Below are positions 2 to 9,448 of a stretch of 9,448 nucleotides of DNA, in pieces; positions within the stretch are counted from its first letter, which is position 1; each line of letters opens with the position of its first letter. Below the pieces are notes generated by a model that saw nothing but the letters and a program-made list of their open reading frames with translations, did no database searches and was not told where the DNA came from. This stretch comes from a virus (taxonomy: Duplodnaviria; Heunggongvirae; Uroviricota; Caudoviricetes). Both the position numbers and the translations under genes were made by a program. The stretch is from the IMG/VR virus record IMGVR_UViG_2579778821_000001. One strand, given 5' to 3'.

Positions 2-889
2 CCGGTGGAGGACGGGCAGACCCGTGGAGCCAATCAGTTTTACAGCGTTATGGAACGGCTGAAGATGCTGGATTCCCTGCAGGCAACACAGCTTCAGTCG
101 GCCATAGTGAAGGCGATGTATGCAGCGACGATTGAAAGTGACCTTGATACCGAAAAGGCCTTTGAATATATCGCCGGTGCGCCGCAGGGGCAGAAGGATA
201 ATCCGCTTATTAATATTCTGGATAAGTTCTCCACCTGGTATGACACGAATAGCGTGACGCTGGGCGGTGTCAAAATTCCGCACCTTTTCCCCGGTGATGG
301 TCTGAAACTTCAGACCGCGCAGGATTCAGACAATGGATTTTCGGCGCTTGAACAGGCGCTGCTGCGGTATATCGCCGCCGGTCTTGGCGTTTCCTACGAA
401 CAGTTGTCCCGTGATTACTCGAAGGTCAGTTACTCAAGTGCCCGTGCATCCGCCAATGAGTCGTGGCGCTATTTTATGGGGCGGCGAAAATTTATTGCGT
501 CCCGGCTGGCCACGCAGATGTTTTCCTGCTGGCTGGAAGAGGCACTTCTTCGGGGGATTATTCGTCCGCCACGGGCACGGTTTGATTTTTATCAGGCGCG
601 ATCAGCCTGGTCACGGGCTGAGTGGATTGGAGCCGGAAGAATGGCCATTGACGGGCTCAAGGAGGTTCAGGAATCAGTGATGCGCATTGAGGCCGGACTG
701 AGCACGTATGAGAAAGAGCTGGCGCTGATGGGCGAGGATTATCAGGACATTTTCCGCCAGCAGGTCAGGGAATCTGCAGAGCGGGAAAAAGCCGGACTCT
801 CACGTCCGGTGTGGATAGCGCAGGCGTATCAGCAGCAGATAGCGGAGAGTCGCAGGCCGGAAGAGGAGACAACACCACGTGAGACGTAA
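2..889 (+). CDS. B: Portal protein, C-terminal part (5'-truncated by window edge)
   Basis: Frame is open from the window start (track ORF 5..889; codon 5-7 is GTG, not a real start) and ends at TAA 887-889. Position immediately upstream of the prohead protease and a C-terminal sequence consistent with lambda-type portal gpB as I recall it. Overlaps the protease start by 11 nt. Confidence 0.88.
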   Translation, partial: PVEDGQTRGANQFYSVMERLKMLDSLQATQLQSAIVKAMYAATIESDLDTEKAFEYIAGAPQGQKDNPLINILDKFSTWYDTNSVTLGGVKIPHLFPGDGLKLQTAQDSDNGFSALEQALLRYIAAGLGVSYEQLSRDYSKVSYSSARASANESWRYFMGRRKFIASRLATQMFSCWLEEALLRGIIRPPRARFDFYQARSAWSRAEWIGAGRMAIDGLKEVQESVMRIEAGLSTYEKELALMGEDYQDIFRQQVRESAEREKAGLSRPVWIAQAYQQQIAESRRPEEETTPRET

Positions 890-2384
890 TCTTTCACACA
901 TTATTGCAGCAGCATTCAATGAACCGCTGCTTCTGGAGCCCGCCTATGCGCGGGTTTTCTTTTGCGCGCTGGGGCGCGAGATGGGGGCAGCAAGTCTTTC
1001 GGTACCGCAACAGCAGGTACAGCTTGATGCTCCCGGGATGCTGGCTGAAACGGACGAGTACATGGCCGGAGGTAAACGACCGGCCCGTGTTTACCGGGTG
1101 GTGAACGGTATTGCGGTACTGCCGGTGACCGGCACGCTGGTGCACCGGCTGGGGGGGATGCGGCCATTTTCCGGAATGACTGGCTATGACGGCATTGTCG
1201 CCTGTCTTCAGCAGGCAATGGCAGATAGCCAGGTGCGGGGCATACTGCTGGACATTGACAGTCCGGGCGGGCAGGCCGCCGGTGCGTTTGACTGCGCTGA
1301 CATGATTTACCGCCTCCGGCAGCAGAAGCCGGTCTGGGCACTGTGTAATGACACGGCCTGTTCTGCGGCCATGCTGCTGGCGTCGGCCTGCTCCCGACGG
1401 CTGGTTACCCAGACATCCCGTATCGGTTCCATTGGCGTGATGATGAGCCATGTCAGCTATGCCGGTCATCTGGCGCAGGCCGGTGTGGATATCACGCTGA
1501 TTTACTCAGGGGCGCACAAGGTGGATGGCAATCAGTTTGAAGCGTTGCCGGCAGAGGTTCGCCAGGACATGCAGCAGCGGATTGATGCGGCGCGCCGGAT
1601 GTTTGCCGAAAAAGTGGCGATGTTTACCGGTCTGTCTGTTGATGCAGTCACGGGAACAGAGGCCGCTGTTTTTGAAGGTCAGTCCGGCATTGAGGCCGGG
1701 CTGGCGGATGAATTAATCAATGCGTCGGATGCCATCAGTGTGATGGCCACGGCGCTGAACAGTAATGTCAGAGGAGGCACTATGCCGCAATTAACTGCAA
1801 CGGAAGCCGCCGTGCAGGAGAACCAGCGAGTGATGGGGATCCTGACATGCCAGGAAGCGAAAGGACGTGAACAGCTTGCCACGATGCTGGCAGGGCAACA
1901 GGGCATGAGCGTTGAACAGGCCCGGGCGATTCTGGCCGCGGCGGCACGGCAGCAGCCGGTGGCATCCGCGCAGAGTGAAGCCGATCGCATTATGGCGTGT
2001 GAAGAAGCGAACGGTCGTGAACAACTGGCGGCAACGCTGGCGGCGATGCCGGAGATGACGGTGGAAAAAGCCCGCCCGATCCTGGCGGCTGCACCACTGG
2101 CGGATGCCGGGCCCTCGCTTCGTGATCAGATCATGGCCCTGGATGAGGCAAAAGGGGCAGAAGCGCAGGCTGAAAAACTGGCGGCCTGCCCGGGAATGAC
2201 CGTGGAGAACGCCCGGGCTGTGCTGGCTGCGGGATCAGGTAAGGCCGAACCGGTCTCTGCATCCACAACCGCCCTGTTTGAACATTTCATGGCGAATCAT
2301 TCACCGGCAGCGGTGCGGGGTGGCGTGTCACAGACGTCAGCAGACGGTGATGCGGACGTGAAAATGCTCATGGCCATGCCATGA
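879..2384 (+). CDS. C: Prohead maturation protease (S49/SppA-like, lambda gpC family) with C-terminal scaffold domain
   Basis: 501-aa ORF starting at GTG 879, with a GAGGAG Shine-Dalgarno at 863-868. The N-terminal segment AAFNEPLLLEPAYARVFFCAL and the core motifs GIAVLP, SGMTGY, GILLDIDSPGG, AGAFDCAD, KPVWAL, SRRLVTQTSRIGSIGVMM, ITLIYSGAHKVDGN and TGLSV align to lambda gpC from memory. Confidence 0.9.
   Translation: MRRNLSHIIAAAFNEPLLLEPAYARVFFCALGREMGAASLSVPQQQVQLDAPGMLAETDEYMAGGKRPARVYRVVNGIAVLPVTGTLVHRLGGMRPFSGMTGYDGIVACLQQAMADSQVRGILLDIDSPGGQAAGAFDCADMIYRLRQQKPVWALCNDTACSAAMLLASACSRRLVTQTSRIGSIGVMMSHVSYAGHLAQAGVDITLIYSGAHKVDGNQFEALPAEVRQDMQQRIDAARRMFAEKVAMFTGLSVDAVTGTEAAVFEGQSGIEAGLADELINASDAISVMATALNSNVRGGTMPQLTATEAAVQENQRVMGILTCQEAKGREQLATMLAGQQGMSVEQARAILAAAARQQPVASAQSEADRIMACEEANGREQLAATLAAMPEMTVEKARPILAAAPLADAGPSLRDQIMALDEAKGAEAQAEKLAACPGMTVENARAVLAAGSGKAEPVSASTTALFEHFMANHSPAAVRGGVSQTSADGDADVKMLMAMP
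1782..2384 (+). CDS. Nu3: Putative scaffolding protein translated from an internal in-frame start within the protease gene (Nu3-like nested gene)
   Basis: In-frame ATG at 1782 preceded by a strong SD GAGGAGG (1771-1777) at 4-nt spacing. It shares the stop of C. The ~200-aa length matches the lambda Nu3 arrangement, where Nu3 is the in-frame C-terminal third of C. Contains the three repeat modules. Confidence 0.6.
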   Translation: MPQLTATEAAVQENQRVMGILTCQEAKGREQLATMLAGQQGMSVEQARAILAAAARQQPVASAQSEADRIMACEEANGREQLAATLAAMPEMTVEKARPILAAAPLADAGPSLRDQIMALDEAKGAEAQAEKLAACPGMTVENARAVLAAGSGKAEPVSASTTALFEHFMANHSPAAVRGGVSQTSADGDADVKMLMAMP

Positions 2385-2825: not shown

Positions 2826-3851
2826 ATGGGATTGTTTACGACCCGCCAGTTACTCGGTTATACCGAACAAAAAGTGAAATTCCGTGCGCTATTTCTGGAG
2901 CTGTTTTTCCGCCGTACGGTGAATTTCCACACCGAAGAGGTGATGCTGGACAAAATTACCGGAAAAACGCCGGTGGCGGCCTATGTCTCCCCGATCGTTG
3001 AAGGAAAAGTGCTTCGCCATCGCGGTGGTGAAACCCGCGTGTTACGTCCGGGCTACGTCAAGCCGAAACACGAATTTAATTACCAGCAGGCGGTTGAGCG
3101 CCTTCCCGGTGAAGATCCGGCTCAGCTGAACGACCCGGCCTACCGTCGTCTGCGTATCATTACCGATAACCTCAAACAGGAAGAGCACGCCATTGTCCAG
3201 GTGGAAGAAATGCAGGCGGTGAATGCCGTGCTGTATGGCAAATACACCATGGAAGGGGATCAGTTTGATACTGTCGAGGTCGATTTCGGCCGATCGAAGA
3301 AAATAACATCAGCAGGCAGCGGTAAAAAATGGTCAAAACAGGACCGTGACACGTTCGACCCGACACATGATATCGACCTTTACTGCGATCAGGCCAGCGG
3401 CCTTGTGAATATCGCCATTATGGACGGTACGGTCTGGCGTCTGCTGAATGGCTTTAAGCTGTTCCGCGAAAAAATGGATACCCGTCGCGGCTCAAATTCA
3501 CAACTCGAAACGGCAGTGAAAGATCTGGGCGCAGTGGTGTCCTTCAAGGGGTATTACGGCGATCTGGCCATTGTGGTGGCGAAAACGTCTTATGTGGCAG
3601 AGGACGGTACCGAAAAACGTTATCTGCCGGAGGGCATGCTGGTGCTGGGGAATACGGCAGCAGAGGGGATTCGTTGCTATGGTGCCATTAAGGATGCACA
3701 GGCGTTGTCTGAAGGAGTGGTGGCTTCTTCCCGTTACCCGAAACACTGGCTGACCGTGGGCGATCCGTCCTGTGAATTCACCATGACGCAGTCCGCGCCG
3801 CTGATGGTGCTGCCGGATCCGGATGAGTTTGTGGTGGTACAGGTGAAATAA
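2826..3851 (+). CDS. E: Major capsid protein (lambda gpE family)
   Basis: 341 aa, the same length as lambda gpE. Long collinear matches from memory: LFLELFFR, YVSPIV, PGYVKPKHE, DPAYRRLRII, VEEMQAV, GKYTM, RRGSNSQLETAVKDLG, MVLGNT, RYPK, FTMTQSAPLM and DPDEFV. SD AAAGGAA upstream. Confidence 0.95.
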   Translation: MGLFTTRQLLGYTEQKVKFRALFLELFFRRTVNFHTEEVMLDKITGKTPVAAYVSPIVEGKVLRHRGGETRVLRPGYVKPKHEFNYQQAVERLPGEDPAQLNDPAYRRLRIITDNLKQEEHAIVQVEEMQAVNAVLYGKYTMEGDQFDTVEVDFGRSKKITSAGSGKKWSKQDRDTFDPTHDIDLYCDQASGLVNIAIMDGTVWRLLNGFKLFREKMDTRRGSNSQLETAVKDLGAVVSFKGYYGDLAIVVAKTSYVAEDGTEKRYLPEGMLVLGNTAAEGIRCYGAIKDAQALSEGVVASSRYPKHWLTVGDPSCEFTMTQSAPLMVLPDPDEFVVVQVK

Positions 3852-3857
3852 TCCGTG

Positions 3858-3887
3858 AGCGGGGGCGAAATGCCCCCGTGTTTTTTT
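3858..3887 (+). terminator. Rho-independent terminator-like hairpin downstream of the major capsid gene
   Basis: GC stem CGGGGGC (3860-3866) pairs with GCCCCCG (3872-3878) around a GAAAT loop, followed by T7 (3881-3887). It starts 7 nt after the E stop. Confidence 0.7.
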
Positions 3888-3900
3888 CACAGGAGCTGAG

Positions 3901-4053
3901 ATGGCAACAAAAGAAGAAAATCTGAAACGTCTTCGTCAACTGGCTGACCTGCTGGGGCGCGAGGCGGATATGTCGGGGAGTGCTGCGGATATTGCACAAC
4001 GTGTGGCAGAGTGGGAAGAGGAGCTTGCGCCCCGGAAGGAAATAGCACTCTGA
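3901..4053 (+). CDS. FI: FI-like DNA packaging protein, N-terminal domain only (50 aa; gene appears frame-disrupted)
   Basis: ATG 3901 with SD AGGAG (3891-3895). The product MATKEENLKRLRQLADLLGRE...IAQRVAEWEEEL resembles the N-terminus of lambda gpFI (MTKDELIARLRSLGEQLNRD...LALRVAELKEEL) as I recall it. It ends at TGA 4051-4053, where lambda FI is 132 aa. Confidence 0.6.
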   Translation: MATKEENLKRLRQLADLLGREADMSGSAADIAQRVAEWEEELAPRKEIAL

Positions 4054-4252
4054 TGAGACCGGGCTGAGCAAAATCACACACACCGGTGAGGATGACGTTG
4101 GTATTCTGGAACGTATCAGGCTTCTGAAGTGTTTTTACCTGTGCGGTGTTGACGATGAAACAGGTGAGCCTGTTGAGCATGTTGATGCTGGCAGAGTAAT
4201 TCTGATGCCCCCCTCAGTGGCAAAAGACATGGTCAGCACGGAACGGCTGAAT
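4046..4252 (+). pseudogene. FI: FI-like C-terminal-domain coding remnant in the +1 frame, with no start codon and no stop before FII
   Basis: The FII frame is open from 4046 with no ATG, GTG or TTG until 4205. Its translation ...GEPVEHVDAGRVILMPPSVAKDMVSTERLN resembles the lambda gpFI C-terminus (...DEPVAFVLPGTAFRVSAGVAAEMTERGLARMQ) from memory. The other two frames are closed by multiple stops. Confidence 0.45.
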
Positions 4253-4606
4253 ATGCGTGATTTTCAGAATGCCTTTGATGCTGCCCTCGCCGGGGTAGAC
4301 AGTACGATCGTTGAAGTGATGGGGCTCTGTGCGCAGTTCACCTCGGGGGCACAGTGTGGCAGCGAAGTTCAGGGGGTTTTTGATGATCCGGAGTCGCTGG
4401 GGTTTGCCGGTAGCGGGGTCCGTATTGAAGGAAGCAGCCCGTCATTATTTGTGCGGACGGATACGGTTCGTGCCGTGCGGCGTGGTGACACGCTGACCAT
4501 TAATGGTGAGATATTCTGGGTGGATCGTGTTTCTCCGGATGACGGGGGCAGCTGTTATCTCTGGCTCAACCGTGGTCAACCACCCGCAGTTAACCGGCGA
4601 CGATAA
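4253..4606 (+). CDS. FII: Head-tail joining / head completion protein (lambda gpFII family)
   Basis: From ATG 4253 the 117-aa product MRDFQNAFDAALAG...GVFDDPE...GVRIEGSSPSLFVRTD...RRGDTLTI...FWVDRVSPDDGGSC.LWL.RG.PPAVNRRR aligns end-to-end with lambda gpFII (117 aa) from memory. The track ORF begins at an upstream in-frame ATG (4205), which would add 16 residues; the start is uncertain. Confidence 0.9.
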   Translation: MRDFQNAFDAALAGVDSTIVEVMGLCAQFTSGAQCGSEVQGVFDDPESLGFAGSGVRIEGSSPSLFVRTDTVRAVRRGDTLTINGEIFWVDRVSPDDGGSCYLWLNRGQPPAVNRRR

Positions 4607-5554: not shown

Positions 5555-6307
5555 ATGGCAACACCAAATCCCCTGGAGCCAGTAAAAGGTGCCGGTACCA
5601 CTCTGTGGGTTTACAACGGCAAGGGTGATGCTTATGCAAACCCGTTGTCAGACGATGACTGGCAGCGACTGGCTAAGGTGAAGGATCTGACGCCGGGCGA
5701 GATGACGGCAGAATCCTACGATGATAACTACCTGGATGATGAAGACGCAGACTGGACCGCGACCGGGCAGGGGCAGAAATCTGCAGGTGATACCAGTTTT
5801 ACGCTGGCCTGGAAACCGGGAGAGGAAGGCCAGAAAGGGCTTATAGGCTGGTTTGAAAGCGGCGATGTCCGGGCCTATAAAATCCGTTTTCCGAATGGCA
5901 CGGTGGATGTGTTTCGTGGCTGGGTCAGCAGTATCGGTAAGGCCGTGACGGCGAAAGAAGTGATCACCCGCACGGTGAAAGTCACTAACGTGGGTAAACC
6001 TTCTGTAGCGGAAGAACGCAGCAAAATTACGCCGGTCAGTGCGATTAAGGTGACGCCGACATCCGGTACGGTGGCAAAAGGGAAAACAACCACCCTGACG
6101 GTTTCTTTTGAGCCGGAAAGTGCAACCGACAAGACGTTCAGAGCGGTTTCCGCCGATCCGTCGAAAGCCACCATTAGTGTGAAAGATATGACAATTACGG
6201 TAAACGGCGTGGCGACAGGTAAGGTGCAGATCCCTGTGGTGAGCGGAAATGGTCAGTTCGCCGCAGTGGCTGAAGTCACCGTTACTGAAGCGGGCGCTGC
6301 AGGGTAA
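5555..6307 (+). CDS. V: Major tail tube protein with C-terminal Ig-like (Big_2-type) domain (lambda gpV family)
   Basis: 250 aa. [109 protein letters not shown] and the C-terminal [28 protein letters not shown] match lambda gpV from memory. Confidence 0.95.
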
Positions 6308-6320
6308 ACGGAGGTAATAC

Positions 6321-6752
6321 ATGTTTCTGAAAACAGAACAATTTGAATATAACGGTGTGTCTGTCACGCTTTCCGAATTGTCTGCGCTGCAGCGTATCGA
6401 GCATCTTGCCCTCCTGAAACGGCGTGCAGAACAGGCAGAATCCTGCGGCAACCTGCAGGTTAGCGTGGAAGATCTCGTCAGAACCGGCGCGTTTCTGGTG
6501 GCGATGTCCCTGTGGCATAACCATCCACAGAAAACGCAGTCACCGTCAATGAATGAGGCCGTGATGAAGATAGAGCAGGAAGTGCTCACCACCTGGCCTG
6601 CCGATGCCATTGCCCGGGCGGAAGACGTGGTGTTGTGCCTGTCCGGGATGATCGAAGCTGTTCGTCCGGATACTGATATTACTGAAGTGGCGAAAAATAA
6701 CACGCTGACTGATGATGATTTTTCTGCGGGAAAGTCTTCGACGGCGAGCTGA
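6321..6752 (+). CDS. G: Tail assembly chaperone (lambda gpG family)
   Basis: 143 aa. MFLKTE.FE.NGV.VTLSELSALQRIEHLAL.KR.AEQAES, RTGAFLVAMSLWHNHPQKTQ.PSMNEAV and IEQEVLTTWP match lambda gpG from memory. SD GGAGG upstream. The slippery heptamer lies near the 3' end. Confidence 0.93.
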   Translation: MFLKTEQFEYNGVSVTLSELSALQRIEHLALLKRRAEQAESCGNLQVSVEDLVRTGAFLVAMSLWHNHPQKTQSPSMNEAVMKIEQEVLTTWPADAIARAEDVVLCLSGMIEAVRPDTDITEVAKNNTLTDDDFSAGKSSTAS

Positions 6753-7192
6753 ACTTTGCCCTCAGACTGGCGCGTGAGATGGGGAGACCCGACTGGCGCG
6801 CCATGCTTGCCGGGATGACATCCACCGAATATGCCGACTGGCACCGTTTTTACCGCACGCATTATTTTCAGGATACCCAGCTGGATATGCATTTTTCCGG
6901 GCTGACGTACGCTGTACTCAGCCTGTTTTTTTGCGATCCGGATATGCATCCCTCTGATTTCAGTCTGCTTGTCCCCCGGCATGAGGAAGAGCAGGTGGAG
7001 AGGCCGGATGAGGACAAAATGCTGATGCAGAAAGCGGCAGGACTTGCCGGAGGCGTCCGGTTCGGTGGGGACGGAGGGCGCGATATTTTATCGTCTGCGG
7101 ATGTGGCGGATGTCATGGTGGATGATGCCGCATTAATGATGGCTTCAGCGGGGATTCCGGGAGGTGTGAGATATGTCCCAGCCGGTTGGTGA
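6321..7192 (+). CDS. T: Tail assembly chaperone G-T fusion, produced by -1 frameshift at 6728-6734 (T portion 6734..7192)
   Basis: The T-frame translation ...KVFDGELNFALRLAREMGRPDWRAMLAGMTSTEYADWHRFYRTHYF...DMHFSGLTY.VLSLFF.DPDMHP.DFSLL...LMQKAAGLAGGVRFG matches the lambda gpT region from memory. The T frame has no plausible independent RBS and start before 6779, consistent with expression only as a G-T fusion. Confidence 0.8.
6728..6734 (+). other. Programmed -1 ribosomal frameshift slippery heptamer G_GGA_AAG (G to G-T fusion)
   Basis: GGGAAAG at 6728-6734, with GGA and AAG as zero-frame codons of G (...F S A G K). The -1 frame from 6728 (GGG AAA GTC TTC GAC GGC GAG CTG AAC TTT GCC...) is open to the T stop at 7190-7192. 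The heptamer and its position match the lambda G/G-T frameshift. Confidence 0.8.
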
Positions 7193-9448
7193 TCTTGTTA
7201 TTGACCTGAGTCTGGATGCTGTCCGTTTCGATGAGCAGATGAGCCGGGTAAGGCGTCATTTTTCAGGTCTGGATACCGACGCCAGAAAAACCGCCAGTGC
7301 TGTTGAACAGGGCCTGAGCCGCCAGGCGCTGGCTGCACAAAAAGCCGGGATTTCCGTCGGGCAGTATAAAGCGGCCATGCGAACCCTGCCCGCACAGTTT
7401 ACGGATATCGCCACGCAGCTTGCCGGTGGTCAGAATCCCTGGTTGATCCTGCTGCAACAGGGCGGTCAGGTGAAGGACTCCTTCGGCGGGATGATCCCCA
7501 TGTTCAGGGGGCTTGCCGGTGCGATCACCCTGCCGATGGTCGGGGTCACCTCGCTGGCGGTGGCGACAGGTGCGCTGGCGTACGCCTGGTACCAGGGCGA
7601 CGCCACGCTTTCAGAATTTAATAAAACGCTGGTCCTTTCCGGCAATCAGGCCGGACTGACTGCCGATCGTATGCTGACGCTCTCAAGAGCCGGGCAGGCA
7701 GCAGGGCTGACGTTTAACCAGGCGAGAGAGTCACTGGCAGCCCTGGTGAATGCCGGTGTGCGTGGTGGTGAACAGTTTGATGCCATCAACCAGAGTGTCG
7801 CGCGTTTTGCGTCTGCATCCGGTGTGGAGGTGGATAAAGTCGCTGAAGCCTTCGGGAAGCTGACCACTGACCCGACGTCGGGACTGATGGCGATGGCGCG
7901 CCAGTTCCGTAACGTGACGGCAGAGCAGATTGCGTATGTTGCACAGCTGCAGCGTTCCGGAGACGAGGCCGGGGCATTGCAGGCGGCGAACGATATCGCC
8001 ACGAAAGGCTTTGATGAGCAGACCCGTCGCCTGAAAGAAAACATGGGAACACTGGAGACCTGGGCGGATAAAACAGGGAAGGCATTCAAATCGATGTGGG
8101 ATGCCATTCTGGATATCGGTCGTCCGGAATCCTCAGCGGATATGCTCGCCAGTGCGCAGAGGGCATTTGATGAGGCGGATAAAAAATGGCAGTGGTACCA
8201 GAGCCGGAGCCAGCGCCGGGGAAAGACCTCCTCTTTTCGTGCGAACCTTCAGGGGGCATGGGATGACCGGGAAAATGCCCGTCTGGGTCTGGCAGCGGCC
8301 ACGCTGCAGTCGGATATGGAAAAAGCCGGTGAACTGGCGGCAAGGGACAGGGCTGAGCGTGAGTCGTCACAGCTGAAGTATACCGGAGAGGCGCAGAAGG
8401 CGTATGAGCGCCTGCAGACGCCGCTGGATAAATATACCGCCCGTCAGAAAGAGCTGAATAAGGCCCTGAAAGACGGAAAAATCCTGCAGGCGGATTACAA
8501 CACGCTGATGGCGTCGGCAAAAAAGGATTATGAATCGACGCTGAAAAAGCCGTCAGGTGTGAAGGTGTCTGCCGGTGAGCGCCAGGAAGACCGGGCGCAT
8601 GCAGCCCTGCTGGCGCTTGAAACCGAGCTCAGGACGCTGGAAAAACACAGCGGTGTGAATGAGAAAATCAGCCAGCAGCGCCGGGATTTATGGGAAGCGG
8701 AAAGTCAGTATGTGGTCCTGAAAGAGGCCGCCACGAAACGGCAGTTATCTGAGCAGGAAAAATCCCTGCTGGCTCATGAGAAAGAGACGCTGGAGTACAA
8801 ACGCCAGCTGGCTGAGCTGGGAGACAAGATTGAACACCAGAAGCGGCTGAATGAGCTGGCACAGCAGGCGGCGCGGTTTGAACAGCAGCAAAGCGCGAAG
8901 CAGGCGGCAATCAGCGCAAAAGCCCGCGGCCTCACCGACCGTCAGGCGCAGCGGGAGTCGGAAGAGCAGCGCCTTCGTGAGGTGTACGGTGATAATCCGG
9001 CTGCGCTGGCGAAGGCCACATCGGCACTGAAGAACACCTGGTCTGCGGAGGAGCAGCTTCGTGGAAGCTGGATGGCCGGGATGAAGTCCGGCTGGGGAGT
9101 GTGGGCGGAAAGTGCGACGGACAGTTTTTCGCAGGTTAAAAGTGTGGCCACGCAGACCTTTGACGGTATTGCACAGAATATGGCGGCGATGCTGACCGGC
9201 AGCGAACAGAACTGGCGGGGGTTCACCCGTTCCGTGCTGTCCATGATGACAGAAATTCTGCTTAAGCAGGCAATGGTGGGGATTGTCGGGAGTATCGGCA
9301 GCGCCATTGGCGGGGCTGTTGGTGGCGGCGCATCCGCGTCAGGCGGTACAGCCATTCAGGCCGCTGCGGCGAAATTCCATTTTGCAACCGGAGGATTTAC
9401 GGGAACCGGCGGCAAATATGAGCCAGCGGGGATTGTTCACCGTGGTGA
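7173..9448 (+). CDS. H: Tail tape measure protein (lambda gpH family), 3'-truncated by window end
   Basis: ATG 7173 with SD GGGAGGTG (7160-7167); overlaps the T stop. The translation MSQPVGDLVIDLSLDAVRFDEQMSRVRRHF...AQKAGISVGQYKAAMR.LPAQFTD.ATQLAGGQNPWLILLQQGGQVKDSFGGMIPMFRGLAGAITLPMVG...ILLKQAMVGIVGSIGSAIGGAVGGGASASGGTAIQAAAAKFHFATGGFTGTGGKYEPAGIVHRG is collinear with lambda gpH from memory. The frame is open to the last base of the window. It is absent from the ORF track only because no stop lies within the window. Confidence 0.93.
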   Translation, partial: MSQPVGDLVIDLSLDAVRFDEQMSRVRRHFSGLDTDARKTASAVEQGLSRQALAAQKAGISVGQYKAAMRTLPAQFTDIATQLAGGQNPWLILLQQGGQVKDSFGGMIPMFRGLAGAITLPMVGVTSLAVATGALAYAWYQGDATLSEFNKTLVLSGNQAGLTADRMLTLSRAGQAAGLTFNQARESLAALVNAGVRGGEQFDAINQSVARFASASGVEVDKVAEAFGKLTTDPTSGLMAMARQFRNVTAEQIAYVAQLQRSGDEAGALQAANDIATKGFDEQTRRLKENMGTLETWADKTGKAFKSMWDAILDIGRPESSADMLASAQRAFDEADKKWQWYQSRSQRRGKTSSFRANLQGAWDDRENARLGLAAATLQSDMEKAGELAARDRAERESSQLKYTGEAQKAYERLQTPLDKYTARQKELNKALKDGKILQADYNTLMASAKKDYESTLKKPSGVKVSAGERQEDRAHAALLALETELRTLEKHSGVNEKISQQRRDLWEAESQYVVLKEAATKRQLSEQEKSLLAHEKETLEYKRQLAELGDKIEHQKRLNELAQQAARFEQQQSAKQAAISAKARGLTDRQAQRESEEQRLREVYGDNPAALAKATSALKNTWSAEEQLRGSWMAGMKSGWGVWAESATDSFSQVKSVATQTFDGIAQNMAAMLTGSEQNWRGFTRSVLSMMTEILLKQAMVGIVGSIGSAIGGAVGGGASASGGTAIQAAAAKFHFATGGFTGTGGKYEPAGIVHRG

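Follow-up and report, generated by a model that had tools for sequence, protein, structure and literature searches.

Three tandem modules in the protease-scaffold gene of a phage 21-like E. coli prophage are Tri boxes whose copy number varies among lambdoid prophages

The window analyzed here (the whole stretch of DNA, 9,448 nt) comprises the block of head genes of an E. coli lambdoid prophage of the phage 21-like (Jouyvirus) type. The threefold tandem repeat found in the scaffold part of its protease-scaffold gene is the same as the 'Tri box' triplication in gene 5/6 of phage 21. This triple repeat was already known, as it was annotated for phage 21 decades ago; its status as a known feature rests on the feature table of GenBank M81255. 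What is new is that the copy number of the module varies among lambdoid prophages by in-register insertions and deletions. Taken as a whole, we consider it reasonably probable that the Tri-box triplication of this phage 21-like prophage, carried by a gene with two starts, provides additive contact units and had a single ancient origin.

The triple repeat corresponds to the Tri boxes of phage 21

The DNA of the protease-scaffold gene is 96.9% identical to gene 5/6 of phage 21, which shares both translation starts with it. The two proteins match at 487 of 501 residues, and 11 of the 14 substitutions fall in the scaffold part. M81255 contains repeat_region features for the Tri1, Tri and Tri3 boxes, with the note 'function unknown; putative', and these map to positions 1849-1952, 1989-2099 and 2130-2243 of the window. 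In phage 21 gp5, the module HMM detected three domains at the same residues as in the window protein; the phage 21 products are named head-tail preconnector gp5 and scaffold gp6 (M81255, OL657228). The closest phage match to the window was Escherichia phage 204576 (98.6%), and the window belongs to a related E. coli prophage and not to phage 21 itself. The segment is present in 1870 of 5426 complete E. coli genomes (about one third), and the 1506-nt gene with three copies was found in all 19 isolated plaque-forming phage 21-like phages. The repeat in this particular window matters little, being a known feature of a prophage type present in about a third of sequenced E. coli.

The existence of three diverged tandem protein modules, at the positions given in the original prediction, was confirmed by Smith-Waterman alignment, by the module HMM and by a PHROG profile. 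Pairwise Smith-Waterman scores between copies were 105, 86 and 97, against 25 ± 5 for shuffled sequences (z = 12.7-16.6). The HMM detected exactly three domains in the window protein (aa 315-356, 368-410 and 415-457; i-E values from 1.7e-25 to 4.7e-28), and the independent profile PHROG 8399 (head scaffolding protein) matched three stretches of it. The geometry of the array was revised in part. The predicted period of 141 nt stood, but copy 1 begins in register at I321 (nt 1839) rather than at nt 1830, which makes the other period 150 and not 159 nt. The module had been given as about 47-53 aa; its conserved core spans only about 36-40 aa, and the period of 47-50 aa is reached by adding linkers of about 8-11 residues. 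An in-frame Met heads copies 2 and 3, as proposed, but copy 1 has Leu in register, with Met319 three residues upstream.

The three copies are 59-68% identical at the nucleotide level, and about half of the codons for identical residues differ between them. Because of this divergence, TRF reported nothing on the window DNA beyond a 20-nt microrepeat elsewhere, and a DNA repeat search of the window gave only matches of chance size (12-19 nt). With no detectable DNA repeat and units of this identity, the array was not classed as a DNA-level tandem array of the VNTR or minisatellite kind. The view that it is not a recent duplication was borne out both by the nucleotide identity and by the positionally matching copies in the Salmonella phage Gifsy-1.

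We also considered a function of the repeat in the DNA or RNA itself, such as protein-binding sites like the CII-type sites annotated in phage 21, the protein repeat being secondary. Record OL657228 places two minus-strand 'CII binding sites' (TTGYN6TTGY) inside gene 6, and both patterns are present in the window (1787-1800 and 2021-2034). However, two matches are what chance would give in the window (1.7 expected), and they are out of register with the modules. Moreover, synonymous positions differ freely between copies, and conservation tracks amino-acid rather than nucleotide identity. This reading was rejected on the chance-level matches, and we regard it as scarcely credible.

The modules lie in a protease-scaffold gene with two translation starts

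Judged by its sequence, the 501-aa protein would be an S49 prohead protease-scaffold of the lambda C/Nu3 type: the protease domain, the gene position, the nested scaffold gene and the module are all present (Table 1). Pfam Peptidase_S49 matched the protein with E = 1.5e-34 (119.7 bits, cut-off 24.9), and PHROG 53 'head maturation protease' with E = 1.8e-228. A phmmer search against the PDB aligned aa 77-289 with SppA of B. subtilis (3rst, E = 1e-16), pairing S162 with the Ser in the AASGG motif of SppA. This residue is almost invariant among 59 family members, and the AF2 pLDDT of the protease domain was 89-98. The gene starts at GTG 879, overlapping the end of the portal gene (5-889), and is accompanied by genes for the decoration protein (2421-2768) and the E-type major head protein (2826-3851), as well as by head completion and tail genes. 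The order portal, protease-scaffold, decoration and capsid is identical in lambda and phage 21. A role as prohead maturation protease and scaffold, with removal from the mature head, is suggested by the identity of the protein to phage 21 gp5/gp6 (97%) and to lambda C (53%).

Table 1. Features of the protease-scaffold gene, in window coordinates
Feature	Position	Strand	Evidence
S49 prohead protease-scaffold gene, 501 aa (phage 21 gene 5, lambda C analogue)	879..2384	+	ORF list, Pfam, PHROG
ClpP/SppA-fold S49 protease domain (aa 77-297)	1107..1769	+	phmmer vs PDB, AF2
Shine-Dalgarno AGGAGG for the nested scaffold gene	1772..1777	+	SD energy; RBS annotated in both phage 21 records
Nested in-frame scaffold ORF, 200 aa from M302 (phage 21 gene 6, lambda Nu3 analogue)	1782..2384	+	M81255, OL657228
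Module R1, aa 316-361 (core I321-A355, nt 1839-1943), Tri1 box	1824..1961	+	HMM, E = 3.2e-25
Module R2, aa 366-411 (core nt 1989-2093), Tri (second) box	1974..2111	+	HMM, E = 1.2e-22
Module R3, aa 413-458 (core nt 2130-2234), Tri3 box	2115..2252	+	HMM, E = 1.7e-20
C-terminal tail, aa 459-501, single-copy	2253..2381	+	Tail comparison, entropy, AF2

The Shine-Dalgarno (SD) pairing energy at the GTG start was −9.1 kcal/mol, and the strongest internal SD in the gene (−12.0 kcal/mol) serves ATG 1782. All three modules are inside the nested ORF, and the C-terminus is common to both products. Other gene calls contain stand-alone proteins that begin at the position of the nested start (P0137, for example), and lambda has a homologous strong SD and ATG at C codon 309.

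The Met heading each module had also been proposed as a further nested start, which would yield a ladder of shorter scaffold proteins. In-frame ATGs do occur at 1833, 1992 and 2133, and a moderate GGAG lies upstream of the first (−7.4 kcal/mol), but its spacing is long (about 12 nt) and no SD was detected at 1992 (−2.4 kcal/mol) or 2133 (+0.5 kcal/mol). Among 152 family modules, the 'Met' column contains Leu in 55% and Met in 24%, and R1 itself has Leu in register, which argues for a hydrophobic core position and not a conserved initiator. The true nested start is the one at 1782, with the strongest SD of the gene and annotated as such for phage 21. On the SD energies and the column composition, additional starts were rejected as very improbable.

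The module is a conserved unit predicted to form three short helices

The consensus of the family, of about 40 aa, is I-(L/M)-x-(C/L)-x-E-A-K-G-R-E-x-L-A-x-x-L-A-x-x-P-G-M-(T/S)-V-E-x-A-(K/R)-x-I-L-A-A-A-P, in which I, E-A, G-R-E, L-A, M, A, L and A-A-A-P are conserved at 80-99% in the 152 modules. In R3 of the window, Ala (KGAEAQ) replaces the Arg of the G-R-E motif, which is 94% conserved in the family. Among 13 three-module proteins, R1 was the most conserved segment (entropy 0.24), with R2 at 0.36, R3 at 0.54 and the protease domain at 0.35. The linkers and tail ranged from 0.58 to 0.84, the tail (0.82) and linker 1 being the most variable segments. The codon divergence between copies, the conserved columns and the low entropy relative to the linkers indicate that the module is a selected protein unit. 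The tail, although poorly conserved in sequence, has a pattern common to relatives, F-x-x-F-M...P...GG...LM-x-x-P.

According to the AF2 models, each module is predicted to consist of three short helices: 307-323, 331-339 and 345-356 in R1 (pLDDT 83-88); 367-377, 380-388 and 395-404 in R2 (55-77); and 414-419, 428-436 and 442-453 in R3 (87-93). A single module modeled alone also gave three helices (mean pLDDT 83), and the full-length model repeated this pattern three times, with linkers of pLDDT <50 that are probably flexible. In the tail, a helix was predicted at aa 460-474, and residues 474-501 had pLDDT <50. According to its title, Medina et al. 2011 (cited in PMC11922011) describes lambda gpNu3 as intrinsically disordered; given that report, the predicted helices may form only on binding.

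Sequence searches of the PDB with the module profile returned only chance matches (E > 0.6). Foldseek of the module model against the PDB gave two matches (E > 5), neither of them to a scaffold; the C-terminal domain of the P22 scaffold was not matched, a weak negative given the low sensitivity with a 52-residue query. Against BFVD, Foldseek found only members of the same protease-scaffold family, and every match with probability >0.8 was an S49 or prohead protease. With the 43-column module profile, a word-indexed search of proteins recovered only 13 fragments, and an exhaustive search of representatives was used instead. The module was recognizable across 435 clusters at 50% identity, as far as a cyanophage, and Peptidase_S49 was present in 57 of 59 full-length carriers. 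The module is the only strongly conserved element of Nu3-type scaffolds, and it has no solved structure.

Lambda and phi80 carry a single module and Gifsy-1 carries three

The statement that lambda has a single recognizable copy proved correct: the same HMM detected exactly one module in lambda C, at aa 364-401 (E = 4.4e-18), and the window array triplicates this single Nu3 module, within the scaffold portion at the C-terminal end of a protein of the C/Nu3 type. Lambda gpC/gpNu3 resembles the window protein in its S49 domain, gene position, nested start and type of tail, with 53% overall identity. Between nested start and module, lambda has a low-complexity stretch of about 50 aa, where the window has 14 aa. 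Phage phi80 gp5 belongs to the same family as the window protein and has one module, and the single modules of lambda and phi80 are most like R1 of the window, which also corresponds in position to the lambda copy.

In contrast with lambda, STM2605 of Gifsy-1 (Salmonella), a homolog of lambda gpC, has three modules in the same order as the window, followed by the same type of tail. Its scaffold part is only about 53% identical to that of the window, but the best matches are R1 to R1, R2 to R2 and R3 to R3, and its R3 retains the G-R-E motif in canonical form, unlike R3 of the window. Three copies are kept in Gifsy-1, P0134, P0136 and P0137 (50-58% identity); R1 matches R1 throughout these four, and the R2-R2 match is clear in Gifsy-1 and P0134. 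Whether lambda and its relatives share the three modules, which would make the array unremarkable, has therefore a divided answer: lambda has one copy, and phage 21, Gifsy-1 and one third of complete E. coli genomes have the three.

The modules may act as contact elements of the scaffold

Scaffolds of other phages offer a functional analogy only, with one binding element each, as opposed to the tandem array of the window. The P22 scaffold has a C-terminal helix-turn-helix domain that binds coat protein, docking inside the HK97-fold shell, and in the scaffolds of P2 (gpO) and 80alpha a small helical C-terminal element of a flexible scaffold docks in the same place. P2 gpO likewise fuses protease and scaffold. 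The part of the P22, 80alpha, P2 and herpesvirus scaffolds that binds the capsid protein is their extreme C-terminus. The single-gene protease-scaffolds of P2 and lambda are mentioned in PMC8508860, and Nu3-Nu3, Nu3-E and Nu3-C contacts are reported for lambda from yeast two-hybrid and earlier data (PMC3224144).

We propose the following model. Initiation at GTG 879 would give the 501-aa protease-scaffold, and initiation at ATG 1782 the 200-aa scaffold-only protein; both would end in the same three modules and tail because one reading frame is translated from two starts. The module would be the working contact element of Nu3-type scaffolds, binding the inner face of the major capsid protein, other scaffold chains, or both, and the same contact would target the protease into the prohead; the capsid-binding role is suggested by analogy with the scaffolds mentioned above. 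With three copies, one chain would have three contact sites, additive and in part redundant, and would reach farther, and the S49 protease would degrade the whole scaffold segment after assembly. The array would have arisen once, before the split of phage 21 and Gifsy-1, by duplications downstream of the lambda-type copy R1, and its copy number would still shift through in-register deletions and duplications. In this context, the earlier suggestion that the amplification changes scaffold valency is a reasonable idea. The module could also make it practicable to study how a scaffold that is largely disordered docks, together with its fused protease, inside an HK97-fold shell.

Alternatively, the modules could serve for self-association or as spacers and the capsid protein could be bound by the single-copy tail at the C-terminus, so that amplification would alter the length or oligomeric state of the scaffold and not its capsid-binding valency. 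This would agree with the C-terminal binding in the other scaffolds, the self-association of lambda Nu3, the helix predicted in the tail, and the presence of exactly one tail downstream of the array in every copy-number variant. However, the tail and linker 1 are the least conserved segments, while conservation of the modules equals or exceeds that of the protease domain, and it is the module, not the tail, that is recognizable across the 435 clusters. We find this alternative possible but doubtful, and we retain the module as the favored contact element.

The number of modules varies among lambdoid prophages

Modules occur in lambdoid prophages in 1, 2, about 2.5, 3, 4 or 5 copies. In the 2-copy alleles (451/452 aa), R2 has been lost in register, leaving an R1/R2 hybrid. 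The allele with about 2.5 copies (P0033, 482 aa) has a 19-aa deletion within R2 and is the commonest, on at least 1000 contigs, and the 4-copy allele (551 aa) has an added R3/R2 hybrid unit. A separate prophage lineage of Shiga-toxigenic E. coli (STEC) carries 4 or 5 copies in exact steps of 46 aa: compared with the three modules of the window, there are five in the S49 peptidase WP_250696612.1 (584 aa) and four in WP_161620704.1 and WP_087905872.1 (538 aa). These proteins belong to the same family as the window protein and have the same portal, decoration and E-type capsid neighborhood. Prophages were the only source of the 2-, 2.5-, 4- and 5-copy alleles, and none of the isolated phages had the STEC array of 4-5 copies. 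A 657-aa 'six-module' protein (P0001) was not counted as a real allele, since it results from a 156-aa block duplication seen once.

Polymorphism of this kind would also be expected if slippage or unequal recombination had generated the extra copies and these were merely tolerated in a protein destined for destruction once assembly is complete, with only R1 needed and the copy number lacking functional consequence. The range from 1 to 5 copies, the commonest allele with its deletion inside R2, the near-invariant Arg lost from R3, the order of conservation R1 > R2 > R3, and the single copy present in 132 of the best 150 cluster representatives are all in line with this explanation, and with an R3 devoid of that Arg and a commonest allele devoid of half of R2, the extra copies may matter little. 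On the other hand, three positionally corresponding copies have persisted, at 50-58% identity, in phage lineages of E. coli and of Salmonella, R2 is conserved to the same degree as the protease domain (entropy 0.36 vs 0.35), and none of the 19 plaque-forming phages has lost a copy. In addition, distant lineages (P0163, P0275 and the STEC lineage with 4-5 copies) amplified the module independently. Considering these data, we judge neutrality of the extra copies to be unlikely, and additive contact units remain our preferred reading.

A stronger version of the functional view would treat the array as a naturally variable 'valency dial', with selection acting on its copy number to adjust the number of capsid subunits or scaffold chains that each protein bridges, and hence the nucleation rate, fidelity or size of prohead assembly; it might also compensate for differences elsewhere in Nu3. 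We hold this to be rather improbable, but if it were true, the natural allele series would represent a ready-made experiment on scaffold stoichiometry.

In the STEC lineage, the units are up to 96% identical at the nucleotide level (R2-R3, 96%), so that there the array is a tandem repeat of the DNA itself, and it is recent or homogenized. These near-identical arrays break short-read assemblies, which has left many records of 'partial S49 peptidase'.

The scaffold repeat is the Tri-box triplication of phage 21

The proposal that the scaffold part of the 501-aa protein carries three tandem modules (R1, R2 and R3) was borne out. Pairwise Smith-Waterman scores among the segments were 86-105, compared with 25 ± 5 for shuffles (z = 12.7-16.6), and an HMM built from them placed three domains along the window protein, at aa 315-356, 368-410 and 415-457 (E about 1e-25 to 1e-28). 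In lambda C, the same HMM found one domain (aa 364-401), confirming that the module is single there. PHROG 8399 ('head scaffolding protein'), a profile independent of this HMM, likewise matched three stretches of the window protein. TRF and find_repeats reported no DNA-level array for the module region, because the copies are 59-68% identical in DNA and about half of the codons for identical residues differ; the latter indicates that conservation works at the protein level. The predicted starts of copies 2 and 3 (1989 and 2130) were retained, but copy 1 begins in register at nt 1839 (I321) rather than about 1830, which gives periods of 150 and 141 nt. The Met said to open each copy is replaced by Leu at the in-register position of copy 1.

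The GenBank record of the phage 21 head operon (M81255) annotates gene 5 (C analogue) and the nested gene 6 (Nu3 analogue), the latter with three repeat_regions, Tri1 box, Tri box and Tri3 box, and the note 'function unknown; putative'. After subtracting 622 from the locus coordinates, the Tri and Tri3 boxes start exactly where copies 2 and 3 had been placed. Phage 21 gp5 and the window protein are distinguished by 14 substitutions in 501 residues, 11 of which fall in the scaffold part. The complete phage 21 genome of 2022 (OL657228; PMC9119081) also lists both products, as 'capsid protease/scaffolding protein' and 'scaffolding protein'. The repeat is the known phage 21 Tri-box triplication, documented via a GenBank feature table, and the prophage that carries it is extremely common: 1870 of the 5426 complete E. 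coli genomes contain the scaffold segment (1782-2384) at ≥90% identity. The protease-scaffold gene is 98.6% identical to that of Escherichia phage 204576 and 96.9% identical to those of phage 21 and a series of isolated phage 21-like coliphages. What retains interest is the variability in copy number, from 1 to 5, and a module without structural or functional assignment, and nothing further.

Coordinates of annotated features (window positions unless a locus is named)
Feature	Coordinates	Source
Portal	5-889	
S49 protease-scaffold protein, 501 aa	879-2384	
Tri1 box	1849-1952	M81255
Tri box	1989-2099	M81255
Tri3 box	2130-2243	M81255
Decoration protein	2421-2768	
E-type major capsid protein	2826-3851	
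STEC-lineage S49 protease-scaffold	1148-2902 of L007	E. coli STEC313, NZ_CP041433.1; also in loci L009, L010

The nested translation start lies upstream of the array

When the Shine-Dalgarno (SD) pairing energy was computed for every in-frame NTG codon, two sites stood out, 879 (-9.1 kcal/mol) and 1782 (-12.0 kcal/mol; AGGAGG at 1772-1777). The module Met codons gave -7.4 (1833, spacing of about 12 nt), -2.4 (1992) and +0.5 kcal/mol (2133), and across 152 family modules this column is Leu in 55% and Met in 24%. These weak SDs and the prevalence of Leu do not support the idea that the modules supply nested starts; the column is a hydrophobic core position rather than an initiator. The genuine nested start precedes copy 1 by 51 nt, and therefore all three modules are present in both products.

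Lambda (NC_001416) has a strong GGAGGG SD (-10.8 kcal/mol) with an ATG at C codon 309 (lambda 5342, position 2543 of locus L003), homologous to the gene 6 start of phage 21 (window 1782). The product from this codon has 131 aa, the same length as the PHROG 8399 profile. The RefSeq nu3 start (5132, codon 239) falls within the protease domain with an SD of only -6.9, and may have been placed too far upstream.

Conservation, predicted fold and possible role of the module

Family modules share the consensus I-(L/M)-x-(C/L)-x-E-A-K-G-R-E-x-L-A-x-x-L-A-x-x-P-G-M-(T/S)-V-E-x-A-(K/R)-x-I-L-A-A-A-P, with numerous positions conserved at 80-99%. An exhaustive profile search of 1.84 billion representatives recovered the module in 435 clusters, and 57 of the 59 full-length carriers examined contain a Peptidase_S49 domain. 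AlphaFold2 predicted three short helices for a single module (85-row module alignment, mean pLDDT 83), a pattern seen three times in the full-length model, with block-mean pLDDT of 83-88 (R1), 55-77 (R2) and 87-93 (R3), and below 50 at linkers 358-366 and 454-463 and the extreme tail. Going by its title, Medina et al. 2011 (cited in PMC11922011) regards lambda gpNu3 as intrinsically disordered, so these helices may form only upon binding. Neither sequence nor fold searches matched the module to a solved structure; in BFVD, only a Synechococcus virus S49 peptidase and a Salmonella phage prohead protease exceeded a probability of 0.8.

In 13 three-module proteins, the modules were conserved at least as well as the protease domain (entropy 0.24 for R1, 0.36 for R2 and 0.54 for R3; protease domain 0.35), and the linkers and the tail, the single-copy segment after R3, were the most variable (0.58-0.84). 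Because strong conservation within the Nu3 part is confined to the module, which is attached to a protease that needs packaging into the prohead, we infer that it acts as a scaffold contact unit, which would bind the inner face of the capsid protein and/or other scaffold chains. Nu3-Nu3, Nu3-E and Nu3-C contacts are on record for lambda (PMC3224144). Tandem copies on flexible linkers would act additively and be partly redundant, and the protease would afterwards degrade the whole module segment. Alternatively, the tail may bind the capsid, with the modules serving for oligomerisation or as spacers. The extra copies may also be functionally neutral; module conservation speaks against pure neutrality, but the absence of the invariant Arg from R3 and the half-deleted R2 of the commonest allele speak for relaxed constraint on them.

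At window 2166-2174 (aa 430-432), the phage 21/E. coli lineage has K-G-A-E in R3, compared with K-G-R-E in 94% of family modules, whereas R3 of Gifsy-1 keeps the Arg. The third copy may be under relaxed constraint here, or it may have become specialised.

Copy number varies among relatives

Among the best 150 of the 435 cluster representatives, 132 have one module, 13 two and 5 three, several multi-copy entries being fragments of the phage 21-like lineage. In lambda and phi80 there is a single copy, closest to R1; Gifsy-1 and the related proteins P0134, P0136 and P0137 (50-58% identity) carry three each. R1 matched R1 in these four, and R2 clearly matched R2 in Gifsy-1 and P0134, so the triplication is older than these lineages. 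The distant two-copy proteins P0163 and P0275 indicate independent duplications.

The array is also polymorphic among close E. coli relatives.

Alleles of the module array in close E. coli relatives
Allele	Change	Modules
451/452 aa	In-register R1/R2 hybrid	2
472 aa	29-aa deletion	<3 (R2 partly lost)
482 aa (P0033)	19-aa deletion within R2	About 2.5
501 aa (window, phage 21)	None	3
551 aa	Extra R3/R2 hybrid unit	4

P0033 is the allele most often observed in public assemblies, its exact sequence occurring on at least 1000 contigs. Its in-frame deletion (window 2031-2087), between two L-A-A repeats, removes the second half of R2. This allele was not found among isolated phages, and in all 19 isolates of the phage 21-like type the gene is the 1506-nt three-copy form. 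A separate prophage lineage, present in Shiga-toxigenic (STEC) and other E. coli strains and detected in 104 of the 5426 complete genomes, encodes S49 protease-scaffolds of 584 aa (five modules) and 538 aa (four), whose units have an exact 46-aa period and up to 96% DNA identity. In draft assemblies it appears solely as 'partial S49 peptidase' fragments, presumably since the repeat breaks assemblies. The 4-5-copy type was not found in the phage collection; thus, among known viable phages, the documented copy numbers are just one and three.

Other features of the window

The window (9.4 kb) corresponds to the block of head and proximal tail genes in a lambdoid prophage, with head-completion, tail-terminator, major-tail and G/T chaperone genes downstream of the major capsid gene. 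The FI-like DNA-packaging gene (3851-4260) is seemingly broken compared with phage 21 FI (125 aa): its N-terminal ~42 residues occupy their own frame (ORF 3901-4053, 50 aa), and the C-terminal ~49 a different one, continuing into the FII-like ORF (4205-4606). Possible explanations are a frameshift or fusion, a sequencing error, or a prophage that is defective. Two matches to TTGYN6TTGY on the minus strand (1787-1800 and 2021-2034) correspond to 'CII binding sites' annotated in OL657228; two matches are no evidence of function, as 1.7 are expected by chance in the window. The major tail protein (V analogue, 5555-6307) has a C-terminal Ig-like domain (PHROG 215/1280, aa ~93-248), as does lambda gpV. 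The G (6321-6752) and T (6779-7192) ORFs jointly match a single 290-position PHROG, and a lambda-type slippery heptamer, GGGAAAG, lies close to the end of G (6728-6734), a layout consistent with a conserved -1 frameshift yielding G-T. The long plus-strand stretch that follows (about 7200-9448), open-ended and hence absent from the ORF list, should by position be the start of a phage 21-like tape-measure gene exiting the window end.
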